IMG/VR virus record: IMGVR_UViG_3300033076_000750
Span: 1-63,983 of that record
DNA: 63,983 nucleotides
Source: a virus
Lineage: Duplodnaviria > Caudoviricetes
Strand: one strand, 5' to 3'
Part shown: positions 6,201-63,983 of the stretch, in pieces
Layout: every line of letters starts with the position of its first letter
Numbering within the stretch: position 1 is the stretch's first letter
Program-made: the position numbers and the translations under genes
The notes under the pieces: model-generated
Seen by the model: only the letters and a program-made list of their open reading frames with translations
Database searches by the model: none
Told to the model about the DNA's origin: nothing

Positions 6201-9200
6201 GCACCTCTTCAAGCGTGCGCTCCGCGATGCCGTGGAAAGCGGAAAGGAGTGGATCGGTTGGACAGTCGGCGACACACAGAACGACCGCTTCTCGCTGGAG
6301 AAGCAGATCGACACGCTCGGCTACCACAAGTGGACGCACCCAGAGAAGGGTGTGGTTTATAACCTGATGGCGGGCAAGAATAACAAAGAAGTATTCAAGA
6401 AGCAATCACTCACCGAGAGCGAGCTTGAAGACCATGTGGGCACCGAGATGAAGGACAAGATCGTGGCAGGAGAAAAGACCACCACCCAGAAGCAAAGCCA
6501 GATCGCTGCCGACCCTATCGAATGGTCTGTCATCTCGGGGCTCGACCTCAAGACAGGTGGCAGTGGTATGCGCGGCTTCTACGACAGGATCATGCCACGC
6601 GAGATCGGCGACTACGTCAAGCAGTGGGGAGGCAAGGTCGAGAAGAGCAACTTGATTGAGGGGAATAAATTCGACTTCGAGATGACCCCATTCGGAGTTG
6701 GCGACACCTTCGTCCTCAAAGACAAGATCACCGGCAAGTTCCTGGCAGACAGAGCCCAAGAAACATTCGCATCCAGGCAGGCTGACGGCGAGATCATGTC
6801 GAGGTCCGTCGCCAAGTCAGTGATTGAGGCATACGCGAAACAAGTCACCACTTCGATGTGGCGCATCAACATCACGCCACAGATGCGCCAGTCCATCGCC
6901 AATGAGGGACAAGCCCTGTTCATGGCTGGACCTCGCTCAGAGTCACCACAGGCAGCTGGAGAGGCGCTCGAAGCATGGCTGGCACTCCCAGCTACTGCCG
7001 CAGAGCTTCAGATGCTCCGTGAGCAGGCGTTAAGCGAAGAAACCGGCAAGCGCACGGTCGGCGATCCAGCACGAGCTGGACTGCTTGGATCGGGCGACAA
7101 GGAGAACCGTGAGCGTGACGCCATCATCCAGTTCCGCAAGAACCACAAGGCACCGGAGAAGGTTGTGGACTGGATGCGCGATGGGCAGGAACTCGCGGAC
7201 AGCGATCCAGAGATGGTCGCCGATGCGCTGATCGACAACTTCTACAACGGTGTGGGATACGACACGCCGGAGCAGGTGTTCGCCTCCGCCATCGTCGTCA
7301 GCCGCATGTTCAAGGAAGCCCGCCAGAAGGGCGATCCTGCGCTTCTGCGCAAGGCTCAGGCACTTGCATACGCGGACGGTGCTGCCCGCACGGAAAACGC
7401 ACGCATCCTGCGCAGTATGGTCGATCCTCACCGCTCGCCAGAGGAGCGGATGCACGAGTTCTTCAGCAAGCTCATCAGCACCCCATCCGAGTTCCAGCGC
7501 ATCGAGATCGAGAAGGCACCATCGCCACTTGCTAAAGAGCGTGAGATCGCGGAGCTGAAGGCGCAGATCGAGAAGCTGAAGGAGCAGGTCGGAACTCAGA
7601 CCCAAGGTCCGGTTGTCGAGCAAAAGAAGAAGCTCGAAAAGACCCTGGATCAGGCTCAGCAGCGCAAAGATCGCAAGACGTTGGTCGATGAATACACGGA
7701 GGCCCGCCGCAAGGCCGTCGCCGCCGCTCTGAAGAAGGAAGGCTTGAGCGAGGAAGACATCTTCGTGAGTGGCGAGGAACGCCTCGCCGCCCACAACTCA
7801 GACCCTGTTCAGGAGGCCATCGCCCAGCACCCGAAAGAGCACCGTGAGGCCATCAACTACATCATGCGTGGCTACTCGCACAAGGACATCGCACAGATGA
7901 CCAAGCTGCCAGTCAACGTGGTGGCAACCATCCATCAGGAGTTCCGTCAGAAGTCGATGCGCTCATCACTCGCCAAATGGGTGAAGAAGGGCAACACGCT
8001 GTTCGACACCATCCAGAACGGACTGAAGAAGGTCTTCGGCATGTCTATGGCAGCACCAGTCCCACTCGCCCAGGCACGCGCACAGATCATCGCAGAAGCT
8101 GAGATCGAGCGTCAGCTCAACGTGCTTGTGCCAACCGCACAGCAGGTCAACAGCGGCAAGATGGTGGCGGTGATCGTCAATAAGAAGTCCGGCCAAGAGG
8201 TCACGATCAAAGTTCCGTTCAGCGCATCCGACTTCCGTGCGTCCTACCGAGTTGGCCGCGCCATCAGCACCAGCGAAAGCAATGCCTTCGACAAGATTTA
8301 CGAGTATTGGATTTCGTTCGGCCTGCTCAGCGGTCCTGAAACGCATTGGGCGAACGTCGCTGGCAATGCCGGTATGCTCATGCTCCACCTCTTCGCGCAG
8401 AAGCCGATGGAGGCAGCGCTCAACTTTGCGTTCCGTGACCCCAACAGCACGACGTTCCGTGAGTTCGGAGAGATGATCAAGGGAGTGATCCCTGGCGTGC
8501 GTGATGCGTTCGCTCTCGCTGCTCTGGCGTGGGATGCAGAAGCCGACCCAATCGGAGCCCGCTACATGGATGAAACCATCGACCTCTCATTCGACTCCAC
8601 CGGCAACCTGTCGAAGGTCGGCACGATGAAGGGTCCGGCTATCCAAGGCACCAAGGGTCGCGTGTTCCGCGTGAGCACTCGCTTCCTGCTGGCGATGGAT
8701 GCGTTTTTTAAAGCGATCACTGCAAACATCGAGGTCGGAGCCCGCGCCTACCGCCTCGGCAAGATGTCCCAGGCCAAGGGCACGCTCGGCACAGCCAAGG
8801 GCGACCTCGAAGCGTTCATCGCTCAGCAGGTGGCAACCCCAGGATCAGAGTCATGGGAGCTTGCAATCCAGACATCTAAAGAACTCGCGTTCCAGGGTGA
8901 CAACTGGCTGACTATGATCGCCGGTAGCCTCACGGCCCGCAACCAGGAGATGGCTGTCGCCAACCTATCGAAGGATGTGGTGAAGGCATCTGCCAAGGGC
9001 AACTCAAGCGAGGTGTTCAACGCCAAGCTCTCGCGCTCAGCAATGATGTTCACAGGATTCGTGATGAAGTTCATCTTCCCATTCGTCAAGACCCCAACCA
9101 ACATCATCCGCATCGGCGCACGCAAAGCAGGACTCGGAACCATCGGCCTCCTGGCACTTGCCCCGTATGTCATGGCAAAGGGCGTTCACAACATCGCCAA

Positions 9201-28135: not shown

Positions 28136-28150
28136 GTTGACAAATAATCG

Positions 28151-28178
28151 TTGACAGGTCCGAGTTCGGACCTATGAT
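28151..28178 (+). promoter_or_regulatory. Sigma70-type promoter with the operator palindrome as spacer
   Basis: TTGACA-GGTCCGAGTTCGGACC-TATGAT. Confidence 0.85.
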
Positions 28179-34299: not shown

Positions 34300-35103
34300 A
34301 TGACCGAACCTGGAGGAAAATTGAATCAGGACACGTCGGGAATGAACGTGATCTTCGTCCACTCGTCACTCGATGACGCTGGACTCTCTGCCTATGCCTT
34401 CCGCATTTACTGCCACATTGCCCGTCGCGCCAACCAGACGGGTCATGCTTGGCCTGGAATCGAGTCCATAGCCAAAGTGTGCGGCATCAGCAAGAACACG
34501 GTTAAAAGCGCCATTGCTGAGCTTGAGGAGCGCCAGATGCTGAAGGTCATCCGCTCCGAAGGTGGACGCCACTCGAATCGCTACTTCCTCACTCGTGCTG
34601 CTGTTTGGACAAATGCACCGGGTCAGGAGATGACCGGGTCAGGAGATGACCGGGTCATAGAATGCACGGCTCCCGGTCAGGAGATGACCAGCAGGGGGTC
34701 AGGAGAAGGCTCCGAAGGTAATCCATCAAGGAAATCCAATGAAGGAAATCCTGATATGGGTGACAGGTCCGAACTCCGACCTACTCCAGAACCATTCTCA
34801 AACGAAGACCCAGACATGATCGAGATCGGCAAGATGCTCCGCGATCCCAAGTTCCTCATCCGCGAGGCAGTTCACAAGTGGTTCAAACGCCGCGTCAATA
34901 CCAAGTGGTCGAAGGTCGAGGACAAGGCGCTCACTGAACTTGCCAAAACCTATGCCTCGGTGCCGCTCGATGAGCTGCGCGAAGACATCGACATCCTCGA
35001 ATGGTATTACACGGTCAGCGGTTGCGAGTTCCTCCGCCGTGATGTAAAGACGCTGCTCAACAACTGGCAGGGCGAGATCGACCGGGCCAAAGAATACCGA
35101 TGA
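34300..35103 (+). CDS. Replication initiator with N-terminal wHTH (HTH_36, lambda O-like)
   Basis: AFRIYCHIARRA..AWPGIESIAKVCGISKNTVKSAIAELEE..SNRY; internal iterons; upstream of DnaB. Confidence 0.75.
   Translation: MTEPGGKLNQDTSGMNVIFVHSSLDDAGLSAYAFRIYCHIARRANQTGHAWPGIESIAKVCGISKNTVKSAIAELEERQMLKVIRSEGGRHSNRYFLTRAAVWTNAPGQEMTGSGDDRVIECTAPGQEMTSRGSGEGSEGNPSRKSNEGNPDMGDRSELRPTPEPFSNEDPDMIEIGKMLRDPKFLIREAVHKWFKRRVNTKWSKVEDKALTELAKTYASVPLDELREDIDILEWYYTVSGCEFLRRDVKTLLNNWQGEIDRAKEYR
34617..34710. repeat. Iteron-like repeats (putative origin)
   Basis: ACCGGGTCAGGAGATG x2 plus 3 variants; core GGTCA-N5-TGACC. Confidence 0.7.
34766..34781. promoter_or_regulatory. 16-bp operator site next to the iterons
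   Basis: TGACA-GGTCCGAACTCCGACC-TACT. Confidence 0.7.
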
Positions 35104-35606
35104 AAACCATTCCCATAACCAACCCAAATCCCGAAGCAGTAAAAAGATTTTGGGCAAAAATAAACAAAGATGGATCAACTCAGCCGCACATGGATTCACC
35201 ATGCTGGCTGTGGACTGCCGGGAAGTTTCCAGACGGATATGGATCATTCAGATTGCAAGGCAGGATGACTTTGGCTCATCGAGTAGCCTGGATTATAGAA
35301 AACGGCCCAATTCCCAATGGTGCCTGCATTCTACACCAATGCGATAATCCAGGGTGCTGTCGCCCATCTCACTGCAAACCCGGAACGCACTCGGAGAACA
35401 TGAACGATAGGGACGATAAGGGTAGGCAAGCTAGACAGAAGGGTTCAAGCCACGGGAGGTCCAAACTAACAAACGATCAAGTTATTCAAATTCGCGAGAT
35501 TCACAAAGCTGGACAGACTACTTACAGAACACTTGCCGATAAGTTCAATGTCAGCCACTCACTCATCAGCTTTATCATAACCAGAAAATTATGGCAGCAC
35601 ATATAA
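35100..35606 (+). CDS. HNH homing endonuclease
   Basis: RFWAKI..CWLWT..YG..AHRVAW..LHQCDNPGCCRPSH..GTHSENM; AT-richer than flanks. Confidence 0.85.
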   Translation: MKTIPITNPNPEAVKRFWAKINKDGSTQPHMDSPCWLWTAGKFPDGYGSFRLQGRMTLAHRVAWIIENGPIPNGACILHQCDNPGCCRPSHCKPGTHSENMNDRDDKGRQARQKGSSHGRSKLTNDQVIQIREIHKAGQTTYRTLADKFNVSHSLISFIITRKLWQHI

Positions 35607-39048: not shown

Positions 39049-39061
39049 TGATAAAAAGACT

Positions 39062-39089
39062 TTGACAGGTCCGAGTTCCGACCCACAAT
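39062..39089 (+). promoter_or_regulatory. Promoter of the ParB-like gene with the operator as spacer
   Basis: TTGACA-GGTCCGAGTTCCGACC-CACAAT. Confidence 0.8.
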
Positions 39090-48939: not shown

Positions 48940-49017
48940 CTGGTGGTAGCTCAGCATGGTAGAGCACTGGACTTGGAATCCAGTGGTTCGTGAGTTCAAA
49001 TCCAACTCACCAGACCA
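48940..49017 (+). tRNA. tRNA-Pro(TGG) with degenerate T-stem
   Basis: Acceptor CTGGTGG/TCACCAG, anticodon arm CTGGA-CTTGGAA-TCCAG, TTCAAAT, encoded CCA. Confidence 0.8.
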
Positions 49018-49022
49018 ATTTC

Positions 49023-49098
49023 GTCAGAGTGGACAAGCGGTAAAGTCGTCAGCCTCATAAGCTGAAGATCGTTGGTTCAAATCCAACCTCTGACCCCA
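49023..49098 (+). tRNA. tRNA with CAT anticodon (Met-like)
   Basis: GTCAGAG/CTCTGAC acceptor, TCAGC-CTCATAA-GCTGA, GTTGG-TTCAAAT-CCAAC, CCA. Confidence 0.9.
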
Positions 49099-49830: not shown

Positions 49831-50030
49831 CATCAAGCCCATCAGCATCATGGCCGCAGGCTCTCGAAGCAGAGCAAGCTCGGCTCAAAGCATTGAAGAG
49901 AAATGCCAAGTTCATGTCCCCAGAGTGGAGGCATCTAAACCAGCAAGTTGCAACTATTGCCAGAGCCACAGAAACGGCATGGCGAGAGTATTATGGCGAA
50001 GTTCACAGAAAGATGACAAATAATCGTTGA
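49827..50030 (+). CDS. Hypothetical protein
   Basis: ATGA-coupled. Confidence 0.5.
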   Translation: MTSSPSASWPQALEAEQARLKALKRNAKFMSPEWRHLNQQVATIARATETAWREYYGEVHRKMTNNR

Positions 50031-50054
50031 CAGGTCCGAGTTCCGACCTACTTG
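50027..50054 (+). promoter_or_regulatory. Promoter with the operator as spacer
   Basis: TGACAAATAATCG-TTGACA-GGTCCGAGTTCCGACC-TACTTG. Confidence 0.75.
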
Positions 50055-53958: not shown

Positions 53959-53968
53959 TAAATAATCT

Positions 53969-53996
53969 TTGACAGGTCCGAGTTCCGACCTATTCA
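53969..53996 (+). promoter_or_regulatory. Promoter with the operator as spacer
   Basis: TGATAAATAATCT-TTGACA-GGTCCGAGTTCCGACC-TATTCA. Confidence 0.75.
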
Positions 53997-54031: not shown

Positions 54032-55345
54032 ATGAATATCACCATCCGCAACCTCGTCGCCTTCGGCAGCAAGATCGACAAACTCAACCGTCGCGCCAAA
54101 CGCCTTGGCTTACCCGAGATCACTTACACCGTAGCCGGTGAGCGCCAGGAAGACGCTGACATCTTTGAGATCGCTGAAGGCGAGGCTCGCAAGGTGGGCA
54201 CCGAAAAGATCATCGTCCACGACCTCGTGCTCAACAACGTAGAGCCCGTCAAAGTCAATGGATGGTCCTTCGCTGCCGTTCTTGAGCCCCTCGGCGAGCG
54301 CAACCTCATCCTGCCAGTATTCGGCACTGAGGTGCCTGAGCGCTTCCTCACATCTGGATGCGCCTGCGAGCATTGCGGAAAGCATCGCTCCCGCAAGAAC
54401 GTGTTCGTCATCCGCAATGGCGACGACTTCAAGCAAGTGGGCCGCGCCTGCCTGCGTGACTTTGTGGGCTCCGACAGCGCCGAGACGGTCGCCAACCAGT
54501 TCGCATTCTACGGCGAGATTTACTACGACCTCGATGCCTATTGCCGTGGCGAGCGCGACCTTTGGTCTGGAGGCGGCGAGCGCAGCTACGACCTGGAGCA
54601 CGTTCTGCCAATCGTGGTCGCCCACTTGAACGAGTTTGAGTTCGTGTCCGGCACCAAGTCATTCAACATCGGCACACCATCCACTAAGACCGTGATCAAG
54701 TTGGAGCTGACGGCACCCGAAAAGAAGATCAAGGTCACTGATGCGGACATCGCTGAAGCAGAGAAGATCATCGAGTTCTTTGCCAGCCTCCCCCAGGACA
54801 AACTCATCACTCGCCGCCGCCTCCAAAAGCTCGATGAGTATGGAAACTTCCTCGGCTACGAGTGGGAGGCTTCACCTAACCAATACCTCTGGAACATTCA
54901 CACTATCTGCGCTGCCGGATACTTCGGCGAGAAGGCGCTCGGCATCGTTTGCTCGATTGTCACAGCCTACGACAACCATATCAAGGGCGAAGCCCGTCAG
55001 CTTGCCCAGGAGGCTCTCCGCGCATCCTCCCGCCACGAGGGCACCAAAGGCGACCGTATCGAGATCACTGGCACCATCATCCGCACGTTCAGCTTCGACA
55101 CTGAGTTCGGCACCACGCACAAGATCGTTCTGAATGCCGGTGGACTCTGCTACGTCGTCAGCGAGCCAAAGACGTTTCTGGATGGCAAGGAAGTGCTGAA
55201 CCTGGACGAGGGTCACACGATCAAATTCAAAGGCACCATCAAGGGCTTCAGCGAGTTCAACGGCGTGAAGCAGATCGACCTCCTCCGCCCCTCGAAGGCG
55301 GAGTTCATCAGCCTGCCCCACACAATCCCACAAGATGATAAATAA
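54032..55345 (+). CDS. Conserved phage protein with zinc finger and C-terminal OB-like fold
   Basis: GWSFAAVLE, CEHC..R.R..QVG..CL.DF; C-terminal KGTIK..EFNGVKQ..L.RP. Confidence 0.75.
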   Translation: MNITIRNLVAFGSKIDKLNRRAKRLGLPEITYTVAGERQEDADIFEIAEGEARKVGTEKIIVHDLVLNNVEPVKVNGWSFAAVLEPLGERNLILPVFGTEVPERFLTSGCACEHCGKHRSRKNVFVIRNGDDFKQVGRACLRDFVGSDSAETVANQFAFYGEIYYDLDAYCRGERDLWSGGGERSYDLEHVLPIVVAHLNEFEFVSGTKSFNIGTPSTKTVIKLELTAPEKKIKVTDADIAEAEKIIEFFASLPQDKLITRRRLQKLDEYGNFLGYEWEASPNQYLWNIHTICAAGYFGEKALGIVCSIVTAYDNHIKGEARQLAQEALRASSRHEGTKGDRIEITGTIIRTFSFDTEFGTTHKIVLNAGGLCYVVSEPKTFLDGKEVLNLDEGHTIKFKGTIKGFSEFNGVKQIDLLRPSKAEFISLPHTIPQDDK

Positions 55346-55349
55346 TCCG

Positions 55350-55377
55350 TTGACAGGTCCGAGTTCGGACCTACTCT
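55350..55377 (+). promoter_or_regulatory. Promoter with the operator as spacer
   Basis: TGATAAATAATCCG-TTGACA-GGTCCGAGTTCGGACC-TACTCT. Confidence 0.8.
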
Positions 55378-55402
55378 CCATCACGCCACAAGCGCACCAA
55401 AT

Positions 55403-55792
55403 ATGAAAACCACCCCACGCCAAGCCCTAACCAACGCAGTCAACAAAGCCATCGCCACTGGCTCTCCAGTGATCACGGAGATCGCTCCCGTCACCTTCAC
55501 CGTCATCGCAGTCTCCAAGAACGCCAACTCGTTTGGGCTTCACAGCATCATCATCCTGGCAAAGGATGGCACAGGCTGGCAACTACTGAAGTCGTCCGAC
55601 CTGCCAAAGGCTGGAGACGACCTCACATTCGAGATCGCCAACGGGCACCTTGTGTTCCCACGCTTCCACTCCTACGAGTGCCCAACCGAGCTTCCAAAGC
55701 TCGAAGCCAAGCAAGCCGCCAAGCTCATCAAGTCCACCAAGAGACTAGCTGATCTGGTTAGAATTCAATCAACAATTCAAATCATTTTCTAA
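55403..55792 (+). CDS. Hypothetical early protein
   Basis: First ORF after the promoter. Confidence 0.65.
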   Translation: MKTTPRQALTNAVNKAIATGSPVITEIAPVTFTVIAVSKNANSFGLHSIIILAKDGTGWQLLKSSDLPKAGDDLTFEIANGHLVFPRFHSYECPTELPKLEAKQAAKLIKSTKRLADLVRIQSTIQIIF

Positions 55793-55814
55793 CCATAAAA
55801 CAAATTCACCCACT

Positions 55815-56210
55815 ATGATCATCAGAAACGCTCTCCCCTCCCTCGGCACCCAGCCGTTCTCCAACATCCGCTTTGTCATCGGAACTGGCAAGACCAAGCA
55901 CGGCGGCGACATCCACTTCAGTGATCTACACGATTCTCTCCAGGAGATCAGGGCTCAGCTCGCCAAGCTCTTCGGTGGCTACACCGAAACCACCGGGCGT
56001 GGCGGATGGTATGACGAGGCTCGCGGAGTCCTGGTCGAAGAGACGAACGTGATCTTCGATGTGGCTATCCCAACCGAGATCGCATTCTACAGCGCCAGAT
56101 ACGATCAAGAAATCGCCAAGGCCCAGGATGTCGTGGACCTCGCCAAGCGCATCCTCCAGCAAGAGTGCGCGCTCGTTCAATTCAGCTACGGACAATCAGC
56201 CATCGTCTAA
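55815..56210 (+). CDS. DUF3574-like (PII-fold) hypothetical protein
   Basis: FGGYT...GGW.D..G..VEE...L.QEC. Confidence 0.55.
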   Translation: MIIRNALPSLGTQPFSNIRFVIGTGKTKHGGDIHFSDLHDSLQEIRAQLAKLFGGYTETTGRGGWYDEARGVLVEETNVIFDVAIPTEIAFYSARYDQEIAKAQDVVDLAKRILQQECALVQFSYGQSAIV

Positions 56211-56212
56211 CC

Positions 56213-56551
56213 ATGAACTCCACCGACACATCCTTCCATAAGCCGTTCCAGCACTCCGGCCAATCTTGGGCAAGCCCAGGTCACACAAAGATCGTCGCCG
56301 ACCTCACGCGCCACGTCTATCCATGCGGATGCACGACCGCAGGTGACGGCTCGGGATCATCCCCGATCCGCATCATCTACTGTGCGGTTCACGACAAGGC
56401 ACACAAGACACGCAATGTGCTTGGCGACCTCCTCAACACGCTCCCAAACTATGTGAGCACCGACACGAGAAGCCGATTGGCTTGGCATGAGGCACAGCGC
56501 CACTTCGGCAACCTCACATCATCACCCGCATCACCAATCACAAAGCAATGA
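56213..56551 (+). CDS. Hypothetical protein
   Basis: Coupled ORF. Confidence 0.55.
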   Translation: MNSTDTSFHKPFQHSGQSWASPGHTKIVADLTRHVYPCGCTTAGDGSGSSPIRIIYCAVHDKAHKTRNVLGDLLNTLPNYVSTDTRSRLAWHEAQRHFGNLTSSPASPITKQ

Positions 56552-56799
56552 GTGACGATTCCAACCTTCTCGACTACGAGCGGCTGATAGAGGCGTCAGC
56601 TATATCGAAAGCGATCTTCACCCTGGAGGGCGAGAGCGTCCTGATTCGTAACGCCTTCCGCTGGAAGCTCGACGGCATGGTTGTATCTAACGCCTATGAG
56701 TCATTCAGCATGGAGCAAGTCTGCGAAGAGCGAGGCTGGAAAATTGTCACCAAATACGGAGAGCACATTGGAATCATCATCACCAAACCAAATGAGTAA
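56548..56799 (+). CDS. Hypothetical protein
   Basis: ATGA-coupled. Confidence 0.55.
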   Translation: MSDDSNLLDYERLIEASAISKAIFTLEGESVLIRNAFRWKLDGMVVSNAYESFSMEQVCEERGWKIVTKYGEHIGIIITKPNE

Positions 56800-56843
56800 T
56801 AAACAAGGCAGCCCCCGCCGTTGCCAGCATCCACTTGTTAGCC

Positions 56844-57074
56844 ATGCTTGAAATCACTGAACTGCAAAAAGGCCGTGAGACGACGTTCGAGGAACGCGCC
56901 ACATGGGGAACCTGTCCAACCTGCAAAGCGGGTCCGGGCGAATGGTGTCACGCCGATGCCGGAATCCAACTCGGGACGCCTGCGGGCGGCGGGCGGATGA
57001 AGGATGGAGATGGAGCGCATCTTGGGCGACTCCAAAACGCTCCCCGCCGGATCAAACTCGTTTCCTGTGGCTAA
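56844..57074 (+). CDS. Cassette 1 gene, zinc-finger-like hypothetical protein
   Basis: CPTCKAGPGEWC...H..R; TAA stop lies inside GGCTAAC. Confidence 0.6.
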   Translation: MLEITELQKGRETTFEERATWGTCPTCKAGPGEWCHADAGIQLGTPAGGGRMKDGDGAHLGRLQNAPRRIKLVSCG

Positions 57075-57172
57075 CGACACAGATGAGATGACCCGGAGGG
57101 TCGCGAAATAACTACGATGAAAACGACTGATCTACACCGGCCCGAGGGGTCATCTCCAGCGCCTTGTTCTCA
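57069..57172 (+). repeat. attC-like site 1
   Basis: GGCTAAC..GAGATGACCC...GGGTCATCTC..GTTCTCA. Confidence 0.65.
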
Positions 57173-57398
57173 CCCGATTTTGGCGCAGGCTGGCGTTGCT
57201 GAGGGCGATCTTGTTTGGTGGACAAATTCACTGACTTTGAACGGCGTCAAATGCGAGCCTCACGCCTGCAAAGTAATCGGCGTCCACCTTTCGACATCAG
57301 AGTGCAATAAAGGCACGCCAGCCGTGCATGTCGTCGATGAACAAGGGCGCGGATACCGAGCCTACCCTGGCGAGCTGAGGCTGCGTGAGAACGCATAG
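57117..57398 (+). CDS. Cassette 2 gene, hypothetical protein (start inside the upstream attC)
   Basis: MKTTDLHRPEGSSPAPCS reads through GTT into the cassette. Confidence 0.55.
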   Translation: MKTTDLHRPEGSSPAPCSHPILAQAGVAEGDLVWWTNSLTLNGVKCEPHACKVIGVHLSTSECNKGTPAVHVVDEQGRGYRAYPGELRLRENA

Positions 57399-57474
57399 CT
57401 ATGAGACGCCGATCCAAAGCCCAACCTACACCAAAGGAGACCGCCCGGCGTTCTCATCAGCGCCTTGTTCAGCG
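57385..57474 (+). repeat. attC-like site 2
   Basis: TGAGAAC..ATGAGACGCCG...CGGCG(T)TCTCAT..GTTCAGC with an extrahelical base. Confidence 0.65.
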
Positions 57475-57772
57475 CTGCAAATTTGGGTGCCGCCGAGTGC
57501 CCATCTGGCAGGGGATGTGTGGGCCATGTCTCGATCTTCACTGGTAATCAGTTCACCTCAAATAACCCAAGACGCTAACAACATGATCCATATCCGCAAA
57601 AACGTCATCAGCGGCCAGAGTAATGGCTGCTATCCTGTGCATTCAGTTCCGCTATACGCAGATTCTATTCCGCCGCTGGTGGAGCAGGTCTGATAAGCAA
57701 GGACTACACATCTACCTGTGGGCACCTGTCCACAATCCTGAAACCGGCTACCGCTGCCAGCGCCTCGGTATT

Positions 57773-57821
57773 CGCTGAACAAGTAGCTCACCGACTTTGT
57801 TCGGTGAAGCGAAAGTTCGGC
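57773..57821 (+). repeat. attC-like site 3 (short)
   Basis: GCTGAAC..GCTCACCGA-CTTTGT-TCGGTG(A)AGC..GTTCGGC. Confidence 0.6.
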
Positions 57822-57856
57822 ATTGAACATCGCCAATAGGTCCAATATGTTTGCGA

Positions 57857-60800
57857 ATGGCATCACCATTCGCATACCTATACGCAGCCGGAACCGACGC
57901 ACGCACACCAAACACTCAGCGCAAACTGAGTCCCGTTGGAGAGGCGCTTTTAAAACAAACAGGTCCGAGTTCCGACCCACGAGTCCAGAAGGCTGAGCAG
58001 GACGATCAGGAGGTGCTCACGCCAAAGCGTCAGACGCACTTCAAATTGCCTGACGGCACGCTGAAGCCACTAACCGCCCCAAGCGGCGAGCGCTACCTGC
58101 TCAAAAACAGCGGATGGCGTCACCCACGCGACCCAAAGACCAACGAGCCGGTTTTGGTCAACGAGCAGGGCGAGGCCCGCTCGATCTACGACGACGCTCC
58201 ACGCATCAAGAAGGATGGCAAGATTTACGCAGCCCCCGCAGGCTACGAGAAGAAGGAGCTTGGTCCTGACCCAGACTTCAATCCGAACGCCATGACCAAG
58301 GAGCAGGAGAAGGCCAACCTCGCAAAGCAGAAGGAAGACGAGAAGACTGCCAAGGAGCAGGACGCATACGCCAAAGCCGTGCTCGAACGTGACGTGTCCC
58401 AGATCATCACTGACAGCGAGGTCAAGAGCCTGGAGACGGCAGCGGCTGAGAAGAAGGCCAAGCTCGCCGAAGCCGAGATCAGCGACAAACGCATGTTCGC
58501 CAAAGAAGCGCTAACCAAGGCCGAGCGTGATGCAGAAGATCGTAAGATTGGTTCGGCTGAAGAACTCGCCATCGCGCAGGAGCAATACAACGCCGCCCGC
58601 AAGTCTGAGGAGCAGGCCAAAGCCGCAACCCGCGCCATCGAAGCTCGCCAGATCGAAGAGGACTTGGCAAACGCCAAGCAGAAGGAAACACTCAATCAAT
58701 TCGAGAGCGCTCTGAAGCTGGAGAACACTGGTCGCCGCCAGTCTCTCTCCATGCCCACACCGACGAAGGCCAAGGAGCCAACGGCCAGCGAGACAGCGCC
58801 AGTCACCACACCAATCAGCGCCCTCCCAACAGGCAAGGGGCTGGACAAAGCTATCGCAGCCAGCAAAGCCCCAGACATCAGGATCGAGCCACCCATCGCC
58901 CCGACGTTCCTGACCGGCGCTCCACGCACCGACATCCCACCAGTCCCAGAGATCGCAGGAGGACCGCTGCCATGGCAGAAGCAGGCGAGCCGCACACTGA
59001 TCATCGAAGCCGACCCGAACTTCGGTGATGAGCCCATCGAGCCAGGAACCGACCTCACACAGGAAGTGGAGTTCGATGCCGCTGGCAAAGGATCGTTCAC
59101 CGGCAGCAAGCCACGCAAAGCCGCAGGCAAGAAGATGGGCGAAGGCATGACCGACGACGTGCCCCCAGAGTGGACATCAAGCAACGCACTCACTGCCCAG
59201 GCAACTGCCCGCGACACTGGCACCGATGTCATCCACACCGACAGCACTCTCAGCGTAGAGCTGCCAGCAAGCCGCCTCGACGCAGAAGGTGCGTTGAAGG
59301 TAGATGGCAAGCAGGTGGGGATTGTGAGGCGCACGATGCTCGGCCTGCCTGAGATCGAGCTGGCACCAGCAACCTACGGGCAGACAGCCAGCCCAAGCTA
59401 CCGCAGCAGCGACCCATTCAAGGGAGCGCCTGAATATGCCGCGCCATCTGCCACCTTCCGCGAGCAGCAGGCCAAGGCAGGCAATCCATTCGCCGCCGAG
59501 AAGCCATGGCGTGAACAGCGCTGGGGTGACAAGCAGGTGGCAGAGTTCATCGAGAACTGGAAAGGCTTTGGCGATGCTGAACGCCGCAAGCTCATGGACA
59601 GCGACTTGCTCAAAGAGATGGAGGGCGAGATGCCAGACGCACGCTTCCTGTTCACCAACGGCTACGTCAGCCTGCAACAGGCACGCCAGATCGACCAAGC
59701 GGTCTATGGTCGCAGCCAGAAGCTTCCTGACTTCACCACGAGCTTCGACGCATGGAAGGGTGGCGAGTCACCGGCAGCAGCCAAACTGCGTGAGATGGAG
59801 GCGGGTGGAATCACTGACGCCAGCAACCGTGAGCTTGTGCTAGCCCGTCAGCGCGTCCTGACCGAGTGGGAGGGCGAATACCGCAAACGCCACGGCACCC
59901 AGCCTGATTTCGACCCCAATGCGCTCGTATCGGCCAGCAAGACCATCGGTGGCACCATGAGCACTGGCTGGCAGACGTTCGTGTCTGACGCCGAAGACCT
60001 CGGCAGCAGTGTGGGTGGGTCCGTCTCAGGATTGGCCCAATGGTTTGGCAAGCAGGGCATTAAGATGGCAACCGGCACCCTTGGTCGGTCACTCGCCACA
60101 ATGAGCGCTCCAACCATCCCCCAGGAGCAGCAGCAGGCTATCCGCGACAAGCAGGCCCAGGGCTCCCCCCTCTCCAACGAGGAGAAGGCGCTGCTCTTCC
60201 GCATGAACTACACTGACGGCAAGAACGTGTCAGACGAAGCGCTCGCGATGATCGAGTTCCCCAAGGAGGCCGAGCTTGCATTCAAGAAGCTGCAATCCGA
60301 CATCAAAGCACTCGGCAGCAAGTGGAAGGAGAACGACGAAGACCCGCGCAACGTGATGGTCATCGCCCCAGGGCTCGCAGTTGAAGCAGGCATCAAATCA
60401 TTCGACACCCAGGCCCAGAAGGACGCAGCGGTCAAAGCCTACCTGGACAAGCGCAACAAGGGCGAAGGCAACGTGCTGGCTGACATCGACCTGCTCAAGG
60501 AGCACATCAACAACGACACGCTCACGCCTGACGTGCTCAAGACCCTCTCAGATCGCATCAAAGCGAAGGGCATGAAGAACGTGGGCATGATCGACAAGAG
60601 CAACGACGATCAAATCACGCAGAAGGGGCAGATGGAAGCTGACAAAGCCAACCGCTATGACCTCATGCAGCACTCGAATGCAGCAGCGCTCCTCGCTGGC
60701 TACAAGGAGACGCGGGACGAGAGCTACATAGACATGCTCAAAGACCTCATGTATTCGACCGCAGAGCGCGAGGAGCTGATCATGGAAGCTGGTCGCCACG

Positions 60801-63800
60801 CATCCATGGAAGGACTGATCCAGCACAGCGACTCGTGGGGGGCATGGAACCTCACCCGTCGTGGCATCCAGACCGACCTCAAAGAACTCGGCATCGAAGC
60901 GCTTGGCACCGGCACCGGATTCATCATCAGCAAGGCGCTTAACCCATCCACCCGCATCTTCAAAGCCGCTGGCAAGGCTGGCACCGCAGCCACCCGAGTC
61001 CAGCAGACGCTCGCTGCCGTAGATCGCGGCTTGTTCATGCTCCAGAAGTCGAAGACCCTGGCAGCGATGAAGGAGATGGGCGAGGCTTATAGCAAAGCTG
61101 GTTTGCGCGCCAACTCACCGATCCTCAATGCCATCGTGCAGAAGGGTAAAGAGATTCCTCTTCAGATGGTTGACGAGGGCATCCAAGGCTTCAGCGCTGG
61201 CCTATTCGAGGAAGGTAAGAGTGGCAAAGACCTCATGCACCAAGCTGTGCTTGAGGGTATGGGCGGATTCATCGCGACCGCCGCATACATCCCGCCAGTC
61301 ATGGGGCTCGGCGCTGTCGAGCGCATGAAGGCAAACACCGCCAGCCAAAAGCACGCCAAAGCATGGGCAGATAGCTGGAATGCCAGACACCCAGAGCAAC
61401 CAATCACTGCGGCTGACGCCATGGGCGTTCACGCAGTCATCGACCAGCGCGACTTGGCCCAGGCACGCAAGACGGCCTTGGAGGCAATCGCAACGCTCGA
61501 TGTGTATCTGGACGAGAACCAAGGCCCACCACCAGCGGAGCTATCGCAGCCGGTCGTCAACGCCATGTGGGACATCCACGGCATTGAGCAGGTCGGAATT
61601 CAGACCTATCAGGAACTTGAAGGCATCGGCGACAAGCGGATGAAGGCATTCGTCAAAGCTGGTTTGCGCACACTCACTGGACAACCACTGACGACCGCAG
61701 ACCAGCAGGCACTCGGAGCAGTCAATGCTGCCGGTGAACCACTAATCATCATGCACAAGGGTCAGGTCGTGTTCACCGACGCTGGTCTGGCTGAAGTATC
61801 GCAAGCAGCCCCAGGCATCTCTGGTCGCTACTTCCCAAGCAAGCAGGAGCAGCAGGAACTCGCGATCAACGCGGAAGCAGAGCTTGCAGCCACACCTCCA
61901 CCACTGCCAGTGGAGCCAGCACCGGCAGAAGCCGAACAATCACCCGCAGCATCGCCTGCGGAGCCGACGCTCGCTACCTCGGACCAGCTCACGTCGGGAG
62001 ACGTCGGCACCTCCGTGGTCGATGAGATCGACACGGAGCTTGATCGCAAGCACGCAGAATGGCAGGCAGGTAAGAAGGAGGTCGATGATGCTTTCAATGC
62101 CACAGAGCCACACTCTAAAGAGCGCAAAGAGGCGAGGGAAAAGAGAAAGCAGTGGGAAGAGAAGAATGGGCAGGTGCCACCTCCATCATCCAGCAATCCA
62201 CTGTCCGATGTCGGAACCTTGTCCAACAAGGACTCAGACACCAAGTTCTCACTGGCTGGAACTGGCTGGAGGCTGACTGGTGAAAAAGAAAAGTCCATTC
62301 GTGGCAAGACGATACTTCGCGTCACAAACGGCAAGGAGTGGCGCTGGGTGGAGGAGGGCGACCTAACCGATCAACATCGCCAGATTCTCGCCCGCTCATC
62401 CAGCACATCCGTGGACAAAGCGGCACACGACGCAGCCAGCAGCCCAACCAACAACAAGCGTCCACCGACCCCAGATGAGATCGCGGCAGGCAACTACGCC
62501 AAGGGGCACCCAACCATCGGTGGCATCAAGATCAGCATCGAGAACCCAGCAGGCAGCAAGCGCAGCGGCAAAGATGATGGCGGCAAGTCCTGGGAAGTCC
62601 AGATGAAGGCTCACTATGGCTACATGCGTGGCACAGTCGGCGCTGACGGCGACCAGATCGACGTCTTCGTGAAAGAGGGCACACCGGAGAACTTCGACGG
62701 CATGGCATTCGTCATCCCGCAGCGCAAGCCAGACGGCTCGTTCGATGAGCACAAAGTCATGATTGGTTACGCCAGCATTGAAGAAGCCAAAGCCGCATAC
62801 AAGGCCCACTACGCCAAAGGATGGCAGGGCTACCGCCCAGCGATGCCCGTGCCGATGTCCGAGCTTGCGTCCATGGTCAAGAGCGGTAAGCTCAAGAAGC
62901 CAAACCAACGCCAACGCACCAATGACACCACACCAGGAAAAACTACAGCGTCACCAACGCCAACGCCAACGCCAACTGACTCAGGACGAGTTGGCGAAGA
63001 TCAACGAGCCTCTGGAGCCACTGATGGAGGAGAAGTTCAACCAACACCTCAAGGAGGCGGGATTGGAGATGGTGTGGGGCAGGACGGAGCGCCAGATGCA
63101 AGTAGCCCTGGAGACTCTAGCGTCGGGAACGCCCCAGGAGAAGGAGTGGGCACGACGGATAGCAGAGGGGAGTGGTCCATCCGCACCAACAAAGGTCGCA
63201 AACTCACCATCCCAGCCAGTGCCGCCACCGACAGCGAGCAAGCCAAGAAAGCGCTCGCTGCTCAGCTTGGTGGAAAGCGTGGCGAAATGCTGGTGCTGGA
63301 TAGCCTCACGGCTCCTGATGTCGAACAAACGCTAGCACAGAGCATCTACGAAGAGGTGGCGAAGATCGCTGCCCGCGCTCCAGCTCGTGACAAGCAGTTG
63401 GTTATGCACCTGGGTCGCCTGATCCTGGCCGCAGTCCGCAAGCACGAGAAGATGTTGGGCATCGCATTCGCCGACATCAAGATCGTGAGCGGCAAGGTCG
63501 AGGGTGGCGGCATGTATGTGCAGGGCAAGACCCTCCACATCAGCCCAGCCACACTCATCCGCTCGATGACGCTGTTCAAGCCAGCCTACATCGAGACGTT
63601 CGTTGACACCGGCTTCTTCCACGAGGCGCTTCACCCGATCATCGAGATGAACGTCACGCCGCAGGAAGCTGCGATGTTCTGGGATGAGCTGAAGCCCGAG
63701 GCGCAGGAAGCGTTCCTCACGTCCTACGAGCAGGACAATCCAGGCTCACTCGCTGCCAGCAGCACACAGAAGGGCTACGAGTATCTCCGCGCCCTCATCG

Positions 63801-63983
63801 AGCGCAAATACAACGCCCACACGTCCGAGGAGCTGTTCATTCACGCTGGCGTCAGCGCCAAGATCATCGCTGCGATCAAGAGGGTCGTGGAGTTCCTGCG
63901 TGACCTGCAATCAGCGCTCAAAGAGGGCGGCGACTTCAATCTGGTCAAGGACATCGCGGACAAAGCGGAGATGGCGTTCCTCG
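57857..63983 (+). CDS. Giant polyvalent protein, N-terminal part (no stop in window; joins 1..10263 through the terminal overlap, ~5383 aa total). Contains an InPase domain and an HEALH zincin peptidase
   Basis: ATG 57857 MASPFAYL; same frame as the overlap; GNY.KGH..IENP.GS.RSG..W...M.AHYGY..T.GADGD.IDVF..FDEHKV (~62480-62850); FHEALH (~63620). Confidence 0.85.
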   Translation, partial: MASPFAYLYAAGTDARTPNTQRKLSPVGEALLKQTGPSSDPRVQKAEQDDQEVLTPKRQTHFKLPDGTLKPLTAPSGERYLLKNSGWRHPRDPKTNEPVLVNEQGEARSIYDDAPRIKKDGKIYAAPAGYEKKELGPDPDFNPNAMTKEQEKANLAKQKEDEKTAKEQDAYAKAVLERDVSQIITDSEVKSLETAAAEKKAKLAEAEISDKRMFAKEALTKAERDAEDRKIGSAEELAIAQEQYNAARKSEEQAKAATRAIEARQIEEDLANAKQKETLNQFESALKLENTGRRQSLSMPTPTKAKEPTASETAPVTTPISALPTGKGLDKAIAASKAPDIRIEPPIAPTFLTGAPRTDIPPVPEIAGGPLPWQKQASRTLIIEADPNFGDEPIEPGTDLTQEVEFDAAGKGSFTGSKPRKAAGKKMGEGMTDDVPPEWTSSNALTAQATARDTGTDVIHTDSTLSVELPASRLDAEGALKVDGKQVGIVRRTMLGLPEIELAPATYGQTASPSYRSSDPFKGAPEYAAPSATFREQQAKAGNPFAAEKPWREQRWGDKQVAEFIENWKGFGDAERRKLMDSDLLKEMEGEMPDARFLFTNGYVSLQQARQIDQAVYGRSQKLPDFTTSFDAWKGGESPAAAKLREMEAGGITDASNRELVLARQRVLTEWEGEYRKRHGTQPDFDPNALVSASKTIGGTMSTGWQTFVSDAEDLGSSVGGSVSGLAQWFGKQGIKMATGTLGRSLATMSAPTIPQEQQQAIRDKQAQGSPLSNEEKALLFRMNYTDGKNVSDEALAMIEFPKEAELAFKKLQSDIKALGSKWKENDEDPRNVMVIAPGLAVEAGIKSFDTQAQKDAAVKAYLDKRNKGEGNVLADIDLLKEHINNDTLTPDVLKTLSDRIKAKGMKNVGMIDKSNDDQITQKGQMEADKANRYDLMQHSNAAALLAGYKETRDESYIDMLKDLMYSTAEREELIMEAGRHASMEGLIQHSDSWGAWNLTRRGIQTDLKELGIEALGTGTGFIISKALNPSTRIFKAAGKAGTAATRVQQTLAAVDRGLFMLQKSKTLAAMKEMGEAYSKAGLRANSPILNAIVQKGKEIPLQMVDEGIQGFSAGLFEEGKSGKDLMHQAVLEGMGGFIATAAYIPPVMGLGAVERMKANTASQKHAKAWADSWNARHPEQPITAADAMGVHAVIDQRDLAQARKTALEAIATLDVYLDENQGPPPAELSQPVVNAMWDIHGIEQVGIQTYQELEGIGDKRMKAFVKAGLRTLTGQPLTTADQQALGAVNAAGEPLIIMHKGQVVFTDAGLAEVSQAAPGISGRYFPSKQEQQELAINAEAELAATPPPLPVEPAPAEAEQSPAASPAEPTLATSDQLTSGDVGTSVVDEIDTELDRKHAEWQAGKKEVDDAFNATEPHSKERKEAREKRKQWEEKNGQVPPPSSSNPLSDVGTLSNKDSDTKFSLAGTGWRLTGEKEKSIRGKTILRVTNGKEWRWVEEGDLTDQHRQILARSSSTSVDKAAHDAASSPTNNKRPPTPDEIAAGNYAKGHPTIGGIKISIENPAGSKRSGKDDGGKSWEVQMKAHYGYMRGTVGADGDQIDVFVKEGTPENFDGMAFVIPQRKPDGSFDEHKVMIGYASIEEAKAAYKAHYAKGWQGYRPAMPVPMSELASMVKSGKLKKPNQRQRTNDTTPGKTTASPTPTPTPTDSGRVGEDQRASGATDGGEVQPTPQGGGIGDGVGQDGAPDASSPGDSSVGNAPGEGVGTTDSRGEWSIRTNKGRKLTIPASAATDSEQAKKALAAQLGGKRGEMLVLDSLTAPDVEQTLAQSIYEEVAKIAARAPARDKQLVMHLGRLILAAVRKHEKMLGIAFADIKIVSGKVEGGGMYVQGKTLHISPATLIRSMTLFKPAYIETFVDTGFFHEALHPIIEMNVTPQEAAMFWDELKPEAQEAFLTSYEQDNPGSLAASSTQKGYEYLRALIERKYNAHTSEELFIHAGVSAKIIAAIKRVVEFLRDLQSALKEGGDFNLVKDIADKAEMAFL
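57962..57977. promoter_or_regulatory. 16-bp operator site near the start of the giant gene
   Basis: CA-GGTCCGAGTTCCGACC. Confidence 0.7.
62922..63335 (+). CDS. Possible overprinted ORF (+1 frame inside the giant gene)
   Basis: Phage-typical A/C leader CCAACGCACCA-ATG; helical protein-like 137-aa product; main frame is low-complexity. Confidence 0.45.
   Translation: MTPHQEKLQRHQRQRQRQLTQDELAKINEPLEPLMEEKFNQHLKEAGLEMVWGRTERQMQVALETLASGTPQEKEWARRIAEGSGPSAPTKVANSPSQPVPPPTASKPRKRSLLSLVESVAKCWCWIASRLLMSNKR
63746..63983. repeat. Terminal direct repeat, copy 2
   Basis: Matches 1-238. Confidence 0.95.

Follow-up and report, generated by a model that had tools for sequence, protein, structure and literature searches.

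Integrons are known as bacterial gene-capture platforms, and in the so-called "inverted integrase" integrons the array lies downstream of an intI that is itself inverted in place. The attC sites at which cassettes recombine are 57-141 bp long and are cleaved between the A and C bases of an AAC triplet; they have a spacer of 5-6 nt, and a 6-bp stem separates two extrahelical bases, 16 and 23/24, of which the more distant is a conserved T (Nivina et al., 2016, PMC5027507). In phages, virulent ones included, attC clusters without an integrase have been reported, IntI1 recombined five of the six phage attC sites tested, and phages were proposed as cassette carriers (Qi et al., 2023, PMC9892861). 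The complete integrons in that study are of bacterial types and reside in temperate phages or prophages, namely Vibrio chromosomal fragments, a class 1 integron in P1, and Shewanella (PMC9892861). In Treponema succinifaciens, an example of the inverted-integrase type, co-oriented genes lie at coordinates above the integrase gene (PMC3607928; PMC3575428).

We estimate at roughly four in five the probability that positions 56802-57783 of the window (the whole stretch of 63,983 nt analysed here) hold three integron-type cassettes in a short array that is partly decayed and lacks a nearby integrase, and that this array belongs to an integron family of uncultured phages. The three small cassettes sit just upstream of the giant gene of the phage. 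As the initial annotation had proposed, this is an integron-type array in which the complementarity between the two ends of a unit is the cassette signature, and the phage carries no integrase of its own: a six-frame search of the window with PF00589 returned no match, and since a tyrosine recombinase is absent, the array is an attC cluster lacking integrase (CALIN). PF01797 also gave no match in the window, Rfam gave none across 56300-58200, and TRF found no tandem repeat. The junction HMM detected four local copies in the window and no others. Full attC geometry is displayed by one of the four sites (j2), while j1 forms 11 of 14 arm pairs and has no bulges, of j0 only half remains, and the terminal site has degenerated (Table 1). 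With defects in both the first and the last site, no more than cassettes 2 and 3 are predicted to remain excisable. Folding of the junctions in the context of the array yielded weak structures (z from -2.6 to +0.8) with the R boxes unpaired.

Table 1. Features of the cassette array, in window positions.
Feature	Position	Strand	Description
Truncated attC of cassette 1 (j0)	56802-56843	+	3' arm alone remains: T23 56821; TGCCAG 56822-27; C16 56828; spacer CACTT 56832-36; R box GTTAGCC 56837-43
ORF1, 76 aa, phage zinc-finger DNA-binding domain protein	56844-57074	+	Cargo of cassette 1 (span 56802-57074)
attC of cassette 2 (j1)	57069-57172	+	104 nt; 11/14 arm pairs; R box GGCTAAC 57069-75; stem 57085-94 / 57147-56; spacer GCCTT; R box GTTCTCA 57166-72
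ORF2, 93 aa, conserved small protein family of unknown function	57117-57398	+	Cargo of cassette 2 (57075-57391)
attC of cassette 3 (j2), canonical geometry	57386-57473	+	88 nt; 14/14 arm pairs omitting bases 16 and 23; R box TGAGAAC 57386-92; crossover in AACG 57390-93; spacer GCATA 57393-97; 5' arm 57398-57411; loop; 3' arm CGGCG 57446-50; bulged T 57451; TCTCAT 57452-57; bulged C 57458; AGC 57459-61; spacer GCCTT 57462-66; R box GTTCAGC 57467-73
Cassette 3	57392-57779	+	Ends in CGCTGAAC 57773-80, 11-bp complement of own CTTGTTCAGCG
Decayed terminal site	57735-57808	+	Junction motif in a fourth, degenerate copy (CCGCTGCCAGCGCCTCGGTATT) that has lost its GTT
Pair 1	56837-44 / 57068-75	+	GTTAGCCA / TGGCTAAC, 8-bp complement
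Pair 2	57166-73 / 57385-92	+	GTTCTCAC / GTGAGAAC, 8-bp complement
Pair 3	57467-74 / 57773-80	+	GTTCAGCG / CGCTGAAC, 8-bp complement

The similarity of the window to runs X1-X3 begins at 56802, and the site of the first cassette, j0, has neither the 5' arm nor the AACG junction, both of which are present in the full element of other phages, which begins at AACG|ACAAGGATC in contigs L074 and L079. A 21-nt piece of j0 has an exact match in ten IMG/VR contigs, and in nine of them the element extends about 50 nt further upstream. The product of ORF1 matches PF24623 (E 2.7e-7; 30.7 bits against a cut-off of 24) and belongs to a cluster of four members at 99% identity. At j1, T23 and C16 are in register, yet T23 takes part in a pair and the L-box stem of 3 bp has disappeared, and therefore we regard the site as weakened. 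ORF2 starts in the loop of its own attC and its reading frame crosses the L''/R'' arm; nine matches to it were found among 1.84 billion representatives, a family alignment was built, and five relatives are 97% identical as far as N92 (AAC 57390-92) and then have differing tails. Two mini-ORFs lie in cassette 3, at 57465-57578 (37 aa, TTG start) and at 57583-57693 (36 aa, from the source annotation), and a second, imperfect AAC box at 57573-79 may divide this cassette in two; a variant contig of X16 breaks at 57577, within the cassette. A search for homologues of ORF3 (57385-57693) found none. That ORF2 and ORF3 are tandem paralogues was considered and rejected (BLASTP E 3.8; hhalign probability 0.1; a six-frame hmmsearch returned ORF2 alone). 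At the terminal site, which the junction HMM matches at 57735-57777 (E 5e-6), the AAC after the motif is followed by a short hairpin, TCACCGA/TCGGTGA (57788-57808), with TTTGTTC. A bulged hairpin after each AAC had been described in the initial annotation; hairpins are real at junctions 1 and 2, but the third junction has only this short one of 7 bp; the second hairpin has two bulged bases, and the first is a perfect, bulge-free 10-bp stem.

Comparison with other samples, covering four runs, all of them contigs, and, of 15 further runs with small shares of the stretch, X1-X3, located the points at which cassettes are joined. Neither a circular cassette nor an excision joint appeared in these data, and contigs would not reveal rare circles. 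All mapped junctions lie inside AACG/AACGC, on the AAC side, at a resolution of 4-6 nt: at 57073-76 in four of four contexts, with breakpoints in X1, X2, X3 and a variant of X16, and at 57390-93 in six of six, all six ORF2 contexts diverging after AACG. Cassette 1 of the window (56802-57076) is 98.5-100% identical in three other metagenome studies (X1-X3), where three different right flanks, unrelated to that of the window, follow TAACG. The flank in X2 is identical, in 29 of 30 displayed letters, to the start of a cassette of about 394 nt that is found in L079 and missing from L074, with AGAACG as its junction. A cassette of 753 nt, 99.9% identical in the two contigs, occupies different array positions (L074 951-1703; L079 4039-4791), and for this one both the empty site and the GAACGC junctions are visible. 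The presence or absence of cassettes among relatives, which had been suggested as a check, was in this way found positive. On the other hand, no crossover was mapped at the G/TT positions to which the initial annotation had assigned them (56837, 57166 and 57467, + strand), every one falling in an AAC box, and the proposed cassette limits had to be replaced by 56802-57074 (truncated), 57075-57391 and 57392-57779: GTT 57166 falls within ORF2, whose residues 1-15, coded upstream of it, are identical in five of five close relatives. The integron-type cassette reading was right in its core and wrong in these limits, and so it is partly supported. Because the junctions are inside AACG, each cassette consists of the attC first and then the ORF.

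The geometry of these elements was tested on 30 distinct junction elements, and the bases were numbered, in a count of our own, starting at the 3' end of the 7-nt box. Position 23 has T in 29 of them; at position 16, C occurs in 20, G in six, T in three and A in one. When both of these bases are omitted, the 14-nt arm pairs with zero mismatches in 13 elements and with at most one in 18, the other 12 failing this strict test; when none or one base is omitted, 0/30 pair with at most one mismatch, and the same arm test on the opposite strand also gives 0/30. These tests replaced controls with shifted bulges, which were set aside because neighbouring bases are identical and the controls did not discriminate. 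The 5' spacer measures 5-6 nt in all 18 well-paired elements and the 3' spacer 5 nt (e.g., GCCTT or GTCTT), and the length of the element is 59-134 nt in 29 of the 30 and 177 nt in one. In an alignment of 18 sequences AACG and CTTGTT are invariant, and both are present at j1 and j2 of the window. The R boxes depart from the consensus RYYYAAC/GTTRRRY, most of them being NNNGAAC/GTTCNNN, and those of the window read GTTAGCC, GTTCTCA and GTTCAGC. A MAFFT alignment of the 18 elements misplaced the 5' arms, and RNAalifold returned no consensus structure. A rule-based attC scan served solely as a geometry control on a real class 1 array, where it found four aadA-type sites plus five other matches inside or close to coding sequence, whereas the sites of cmlA1 and estX escaped it. 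In the aadA1-type attC sites of phage P1 (MH445380), used as positive control, the bulges are on the 5' arm of the coding strand, which indicates that the coding strand of the phage elements behaves as the bottom strand. The coding strand is thus the attC bottom strand, the mirror of classical cassettes; judged by bulges and crossover against the aadA1 control, these cassettes do not have the ORF on the top strand with the attC after it. ORF1, ORF2 and a PAPS reductase gene are all coded on the attC bottom strand, and the openness of the frames, with the + strand open in 32/43 units and the - strand in 18/43, argues moderately for this coding strand.

The ten IMG/VR phage contigs that have the 21-nt piece of j0 in common are otherwise unrelated, and they contain chains of up to eight like-built units. 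In three contigs, a 321-aa integrase is encoded 47 nt from the array. For the integrase of L074 (5025-5990) the best NCBIfam match is TIGR02249, integron integrase (E 3.5e-57), covering model positions 14-314 of 315; its 194 bits are below the NCBI curated cut-off of 265, and XerD scores 111 bits. The protein shares 40% identity with IntI1 over 277 aa, in an alignment that spans LERKY..PWFWVF, a stretch that we take to be the IntI-specific insert or domain. The integrase family has 342 members. The ATG of the L074 gene lies 47 nt from the last cassette and the gene points away from the array; L074 and L079 have different integrase-proximal cassettes, and the flank is identical from AGAAC|AGTTAATT on. 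The only integrase found linked to the cassette family is this phage-borne one, and 7 of the 10 array-bearing records are without a tyrosine recombinase, two of these being rated 100% complete. G005 codes for a Sak4-like annealing protein. Beyond these contigs, no relatives were found among GenBank phages (blastn of 56400-58400, tblastn of the portal), among viral contigs (438-aa ORF, portal, N-terminus of the giant protein, ORF1 and the ORF2 alignment) or among genome contigs (ORF2 and ORF1). In metagenome contigs, ORF1 has homologues at only 60-67%, in ordinary GC-rich contexts without junction elements. A 17-base pattern around CAGCGCCTTGTTC gave 60 single matches in viral contigs, which were taken as chance because none was otherwise similar to the window.

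The weakest of the other explanations is that small genes show complementary ends by chance; 8-mers can recur fortuitously, and the window contains 332 inverted 8-mer pairs at 150-400 nt. Nevertheless, the three GTT.../...AAC pairs of 8 bp reported in the initial annotation are all present and are not fortuitous, pair 3 lengthens to 11 bp (CTTGTTCAGCG / CGCTGAACAAG), and the stop codons lie where they had been placed (TAA 57072-74, TAG 57396-98, TGA 57776-78). GTT-prefixed 8-mers with a reverse complement 150-400 nt downstream number 6 in the window as compared to 2.27 +/- 1.63 in 100 shuffles, and, although three of them lie elsewhere, the other three are the consecutive cassette units. When the position of AAC was set independently, by breakpoints in other samples, the 5 nt before it matched the 5 nt after GTT at 5/5 positions in unit 1 and 5/5 in unit 2. 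In the window and ten other phage contigs (11 sequences), 57 of 97 CTTGTT sites have their own 7-8-mer complement 60-900 nt downstream, against a background of 150 of 1881 (8.0%) for other GTT sites. Chance is already contradicted by these results and can be given practically no weight. The small ORFs flanked by short inverted repeats could also be read as miniature transposons of the MITE or mycobacteriophage MPME kind, bounded by terminal inverted repeats of 8-11 bp. This is very improbable and is already contradicted by the mapped junctions: shared left ends lie 35-95 nt upstream of the left repeat, cassette 1 starting at 56802 and not at 56837; all relatives conserve residues 1-15 of ORF2, which are coded upstream of GTT 57166; the 753-nt unit begins at AACGC, about 80 nt upstream of its own GTT box; and no target-site duplications flank the repeats.

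More has to be said for two explanations that dispense with a site-specific enzyme or with mobility of the units. Conserved linkers of the PeSL type, consisting of a promoter/terminator and a stem-loop, allow genes to be swapped by homologous recombination through phage recombinases, and such shuffling, with mini-circles, is documented in T4-like phages (PMC2839356; PMC4122927). Our elements resemble one another, the same element can precede different genes, only the j0 element is common to the window and the ten contigs, and an annealing protein of the Sak4 kind is encoded by G005. However, homologous exchange would be expected to leave junctions anywhere across the shared 90 nt and not, as in every mapped case, at one spot of 4-6 nt (AACG); the sequences to the right of cassette 1 in X1, X2, X3 and the window bear no relation to one another and offer no homology to recombine in; no sigma-70-like promoter was found in 55200-58300; an IntI-like integrase adjoins the arrays; and neither the own-end complementarity nor the one-strand bulges fixed at 16 and 23 are explained. 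We consider this possibility unlikely, even if it is the best of the alternatives. About half as probable is that the hairpins are 5' leaders acting at the RNA level, the pairing of start and end being a translational or mRNA-stability device and the mosaicism of the ordinary type seen at phage gene boundaries. The start of ORF2 in a hairpin loop, a Shine-Dalgarno-like AAGGAG in the loop of j2, the covariation of stems between copies and a G-T pair in j0 of the window where relatives pair A-T are consistent with it, but the occurrence of a single cassette at two places in the arrays, bordered on either side by AACGC, the neighbouring integrase and the position-by-position attC geometry are left unexplained.

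Returning to the integron-type reading, we propose that a cassette, written on the coding strand, comprises the C(G) of AACG, the attC hairpin, CTT-GTT with a box of 4-5 nt, the ORF, and the complementary box followed by AA. Within the AAC triplet at the hairpin's 5' end, recombination would occur at the step from A to C, the point at which integron integrases cleave the attC bottom strand; with the bottom strand being the coding strand, each attC precedes its ORF. Phage transcription would then pass through the array toward intI, where intI is present; in the window it may start from a promoter-like motif at 55341. Cassette exchange may be catalysed by the phage-borne integrase or by a host IntI, and in the phage of the window, the integrase presumably acts in trans, coming for instance from a co-infecting phage. 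At slightly better than even odds, these arrays may represent a phage-specific integron lineage, widespread in freshwater and soil viromes, with its own XerD-annotated IntI-like family, an attI-like junction 47 nt from intI, arrays of up to eight or more cassettes, bottom-strand ORFs read through toward intI and not from Pc, cassettes that move between unrelated phages, and integrase-less phages, the present one among them, whose small arrays are serviced in trans during co-infection.

That phages contain attC clusters and a few integrons of bacterial type was shown only recently, and the present data suggest that phages have a cassette pool and an integrase family of their own, with a layout mirrored with respect to the textbook one. 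If the integrase works as we infer, small accessory genes would be traded site-specifically across unrelated phage genomes, and part of phage mosaicism would be explained at the resolution of single genes. Among the cargo are a DNA-binding zinc finger, small proteins of a family without known function, and a PAPS reductase. What determines the choice of strand and the orientation of cassettes when integrons recombine could be examined through the mirrored layout, which serves as a natural test. This phage family is probably overlooked by integron detectors and annotators, because its integrases are labelled XerD and its R boxes are off consensus.

Compared with classical integrons, both class 1 and chromosomal, the phage arrays agree in having AAC/GTT triplets as the sole invariant core, a crossover in AAC, and sites with an R box, an unpaired spacer of 5-6 nt, extrahelical bases 16 and 23 at a distance of 6 bp, a T as the far one and a variable loop. 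Lengths are mostly 86-134 nt, the ends of each cassette are complementary, and the array adjoins an IntI-like integrase that reads away from it, with a variable integrase-proximal cassette. They differ in that the carriers are phages, and in that the ORFs are on the attC bottom strand, follow their attC and are transcribed toward intI, so that their expression cannot come from a Pc promoter that faces out of the platform. Instead of RYYYAAC/GTTRRRY the phage R boxes have GAAC/GTTC, base 16 is mostly C where classical sites usually have G, the spacer ends (AAC-G, CTT-GTT) are conserved, and the ORFs often start inside the attC loop. Phage CALINs are already published, whereas the present lineage and its mirrored layout appear not to be; the accessible part of the work of Qi et al. 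(PMC9892861) presents no phage lineage that combines an IntI-like family of its own with arrays of up to eight cassettes and mirrored ORFs, and its 17 CALINs may overlap with those described here. The PeSL regulatory cassettes known from T4-like phages (Arbiol et al., 2010; Comeau et al., 2014) are similar in that stem-loops flank small non-essential ORFs in plastic regions, neighbours differing by whole modules of ORF plus element and mini-circles having been reported. PeSLs, however, combine a sigma-70 promoter with a stem-loop and recombine by homology, whereas the elements of the window have fixed AACG junctions and attC geometry, and no such promoter was found in 55200-58300; a separate PeSL-like motif is present elsewhere in the window. 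Finally, the inverted-integrase integrons of Treponema and others (PMC3607928; PMC3575428) share with the phage arrays cassette genes that are co-oriented with intI. Unlike in the Treponema type, the phage array is located upstream of the 5' end of intI, in the classical intI-attI-attC polarity; what is inverted is the ORFs inside their cassettes.

Judged by their geometry, the junction elements of this phage and of other array-bearing phage contigs, the hairpin segments between the cassette ORFs, are attC sites. We extracted 38 such elements, 30 of them distinct, with positions numbered starting at the 3' end of the 7-nt GTT box. Of the distinct elements, 29/30 have T at base 23; at base 16, 20 have C, 6 have G, 3 have T and 1 has A. 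When both bases are omitted, the two arms pair over the 14 nt of the 3' arm without mismatch in 13/30 elements and with at most one mismatch in 18/30; none of the 30 pairs as well when none or only one of them is omitted, and the same test on the opposite strand gave 0/30. All 18 well-paired elements have a 5' spacer of 5-6 nt following AAC. According to Nivina et al. (2016, PMC5027507), the classical attC site (57-141 bp) is cleaved on its bottom strand between A and C of the AAC in R'; its spacer measures five to six bases, and two extrahelical bases, at 16 and at 23 or 24, flank a 6-bp stem, the far one being a conserved T. Crossover, spacer and extrahelical bases of the phage elements can be stated in the same terms.

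ORF1 and ORF2 are each present in several further contexts; the three ORFs that directly precede the array (55403-56799) occur only in this genome. In a comparison of public contigs with the window stretch 56300-58300, contigs of three metagenome runs from three other studies (X1-X3; freshwater, soil and an unspecified metagenome) have only 56802-57076 in common with the window, at 98.5-100% identity, with one common left flank and three differing right flanks that all begin after ...GGCTAACG. A variant contig in X16, the run that covers the stretch best, carries the next segment, from 57073 on, behind a different left flank, and five near-identical ORF2 relatives (97%) agree up to N92 (AAC 57390-92) and thereafter have differing tails, all with a G-initial first codon. 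Therefore, both mapped junctions are AACG, a tetramer whose frequency in this genome is 0.0056 per nt. Variant contigs of X16 also break at 57201, inside ORF2 and away from any AAC/GTT box, and at 57577; the latter variant shows 9 differences, as well as a deletion of 1 nt at 57632 that would frameshift the 36-aa ORF.

The same elements occur in other phages. Ten IMG/VR contigs (10-73 kb) contain an exact match to 21 nt of the first junction element (56823-56843) and have no other similarity to the window in DNA or protein. In eight of the ten, the first ORF after GTTAGCC terminates in GGCTAAC+G, 190-229 nt downstream, and at least five different genes are found among these ORFs. GGCTAAC+G is always followed by an element built as j1 and j2, the predicted attC sites of window cassettes 2 and 3: AACG, then a few bases and a hairpin in which the arm sequences vary with complementarity kept, and finally C(A/C)G(C/T)G(C/T)CTTGTTC. 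An apparent conserved upstream gene in these contigs proved instead to be the 5' half of the first element, which is full-length there and of which only the 3' 42 nt are left in the window. Two of the contigs, L074 and L079, are near-identical save for cassette content, and carry chains of up to 7 and 8 units, respectively. A 753-nt unit, 99.9% identical between L074 (951-1703) and L079 (4039-4791), has GAACGC at both ends and an empty site visible in L079; a unit of ~394 nt, present in L079 and absent from L074, has the junction AGAACG, and 29 of its first 30 letters match the sequence to the right of the window-type ORF1 cassette in X2. The ends of these units therefore define the mobile unit as hairpin element, GTT box, ORF, complementary box and AA. 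On the coding strand, the crossover falls in the AAC that lies 5' of the hairpin, and not at G/TT, where the initial annotation had placed it; its proposal to look for cassette presence or absence in relatives was borne out by the differing content of X1-X3 and of L074 versus L079.

Within the window, the three GTTnnnnn/nnnnnAAC pairs and the stop codons described for the array are present at the positions given for them. The whole window holds six such pairs at 150-400 nt spacing, three of which are the three consecutive units, against 2.27 +/- 1.63 in 100 shuffles. With AAC positions set independently, from junctions in other contigs and proteins, the 5 nt after GTT and the 5 nt before the next AAC are complementary at 5/5 positions in both unit 1 and unit 2. 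The 13-mer CAGCGCCTTGTTC has exact copies at 57157 and 57458 and a degenerate third at 57758 (spacing 301 and 300 nt), and a small HMM of the junction motif found four copies, all within 56802-57783, with no match elsewhere in the genome. ORF2 starts within the first hairpin and its reading frame crosses GTT 57166, which argues against the cassette border once drawn there. Cassette 3 may comprise two units, since a variant contig breaks at 57577. As anticipated for a phage lacking an integrase, the window encodes no tyrosine recombinase, and no Y1 transposase either; lacking the former, the array is a CALIN, a cluster of attC sites without integrase. Codon usage over 56840-57800 is atypical for this genome. 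A search for ORF3 homologues found none, and comparison rejected it as an ORF2 paralogue. Distant ORF2 homologues (39-50% identity) have Asn five residues past the GEL motif in 4/7 cases, as in the window, followed by tails of very different lengths, which suggests that the AAC junction terminating ORF2 is old.

Features of the window and of the related phage contig L074 (window positions unless L074 is named)
Feature	Position	Strand	Description
SU10-type portal; UvrD, DEAD and DnaB helicases; HNH endonuclease			window-encoded
HNH_3 endonuclease	35100-35606		E 3.8e-12; between HTH_36 protein and DnaB helicase
tRNA-Pro(TGG) and tRNA-Met(CAT)	48940-49098		adjacent; the window's two tRNAs
TTGACA/palindrome motif	28142-28177, 39053-39088, 50018-50053, 53960-53995, 55341-55376, 57947-57982		about 10 more copies
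Cassette 1	56802-57074		with half an attC
ORF1	56844-57074	+	phage zinc-finger domain protein, PF24623, E 2.7e-7
Cassette 2	57075-57391		attC j1: bulges lost, 11/14 arm pairs
ORF2	57117-57398	+	small conserved family, 9 matches in 1.84 billion representatives
Cassette 3	57392-57779		attC j2: full geometry, 14/14 arm pairs
ORF3	57385-57693	+	
36-aa ORF	57583-57693		called by source annotation
Decayed terminal site	57735-57808		
Giant ORF	57983-63982, then 1-10263		~5,400 aa; runs across record ends
PAPS-reductase-like cassette ORF	L074:4107-4961		284 aa; integrase-proximal, far larger than other cassettes
IntI-like integrase	L074:5025-5990		321 aa; best match TIGR02249 integron integrase

At 63,983 nt, the window corresponds to a complete IMG/VR virus record, whose ends overlap (1-236 and 63746-63981; 236 nt, 96% identity). 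Every long ORF is on the + strand, and neither DNA nor portal-protein searches found a relative among GenBank phages. Its HNH_3 endonuclease is likely a free-standing homing endonuclease. The cassette region is the final kilobase upstream of the giant gene, whose product is a 'polyvalent protein' because of its InPase (E 1.2e-46), ART-PolyVal and DUF7178 domains; such proteins are thought to be injected by some phages. A motif consisting of an AT-rich run, TTGACA, the 16-nt palindrome GGTCCGAGTTCGGACC and TAtgAT recurs at least 15 times genome-wide, almost always on the + strand, with one copy right before the giant gene and another heading the small-gene block that holds the cassettes; a promoter scan of 55200-58300 flagged neither of its two copies there. 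Over the same stretch, 11 terminator-like hairpins are followed by T runs, every one of them on the non-coding - strand, against 3.2 +/- 2.0 in shuffles; one is inside the first junction element (56819-56807). This excess may be no more than a consequence of the A-rich coding strand.

Of the ten records, those of the L070, L074 and L079 lineage, three in number, have a tyrosine recombinase adjoining the array; the other seven, two of them rated complete, encode none. The L074 enzyme matches TIGR02249 over model positions 14-314 of 315 (E 3.5e-57) with 194 bits, below the curated cut-off of 265 bits, against 111 bits for the XerD model, and shares 40% identity with IntI1 across 277 aa, in an alignment spanning LERKY...PWFWVF, a stretch that we take to be the IntI-specific insert. 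The gene points away from the array, and its ATG lies 47 nt past the last cassette. From AGAAC/AGTTAATT through this ATG, the sequence is the same in L074 and L079, but the cassette adjoining this flank differs (PAPS reductase in L074, phrog_424, E 2.5e-40; another unit in L079), which is what insertion at attI would produce. The phage genes of L074 include a Sak4-like protein, helicases, terminase, a tail-fibre-like protein and a second integrase. The integrase family numbers 342 proteins at E <= 1e-20; its best 120 clusters are 70-100% identical, nearly all metagenomic, lie on contigs of <=62 kb and carry only the name 'site-specific recombinase XerD', and the family may mark many further phage integrons. 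The IntI-like integrase is the putative catalyst of the cassette exchanges.

Could the units arise or move otherwise? Chance is excluded as the source of the GTT/AAC complementarity, both by the shuffles and because, over the ten contigs and the window, 57/97 CTTGTT sites have their own 7-8-mer complement 60-900 nt downstream (AAC then G in 47/57) against 150/1881 (8.0%) of other GTT sites. Homologous recombination at common linkers, comparable to the promoter-early stem-loops (PeSL) of T4-like phages, would account for elements being common to many units, but it leaves unexplained the single-spot junctions, the unrelated flanks, the own-end complementarity and the strand-specific bulges. Hairpins acting purely at the RNA level would leave mobility and the integrase unaccounted for, and the left ends of the common units contradict the idea of terminal-inverted-repeat transposons.

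Qi et al. (2023, PMC9892861) have already published CALINs in phages, as well as a small number of bacterial-type integrons in temperate phages. The literature searches, which covered the main text of that study, yielded no phage integron lineage with bottom-strand cassette ORFs. In 'inverted integrase' integrons, the array lies downstream of an inverted intI. Cassette genes of this group are co-oriented with intI (PMC3575428, PMC3607928). In the phage elements, it is the coding strand's 3' arm that carries the bulges, in contrast to the aadA1-type attC sites of phage P1 (MH445380) used as control, in which they are on the 5' arm; from bulge side and crossover position, the coding strand is therefore the attC bottom strand. 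The R box is mostly GAAC/GTTC in the phage elements and RYYYAAC/GTTRRRY in classical sites, base 16 is mostly C instead of G, and the phage elements, unlike classical sites, have conserved spacer ends and ORFs that often start inside the loop.
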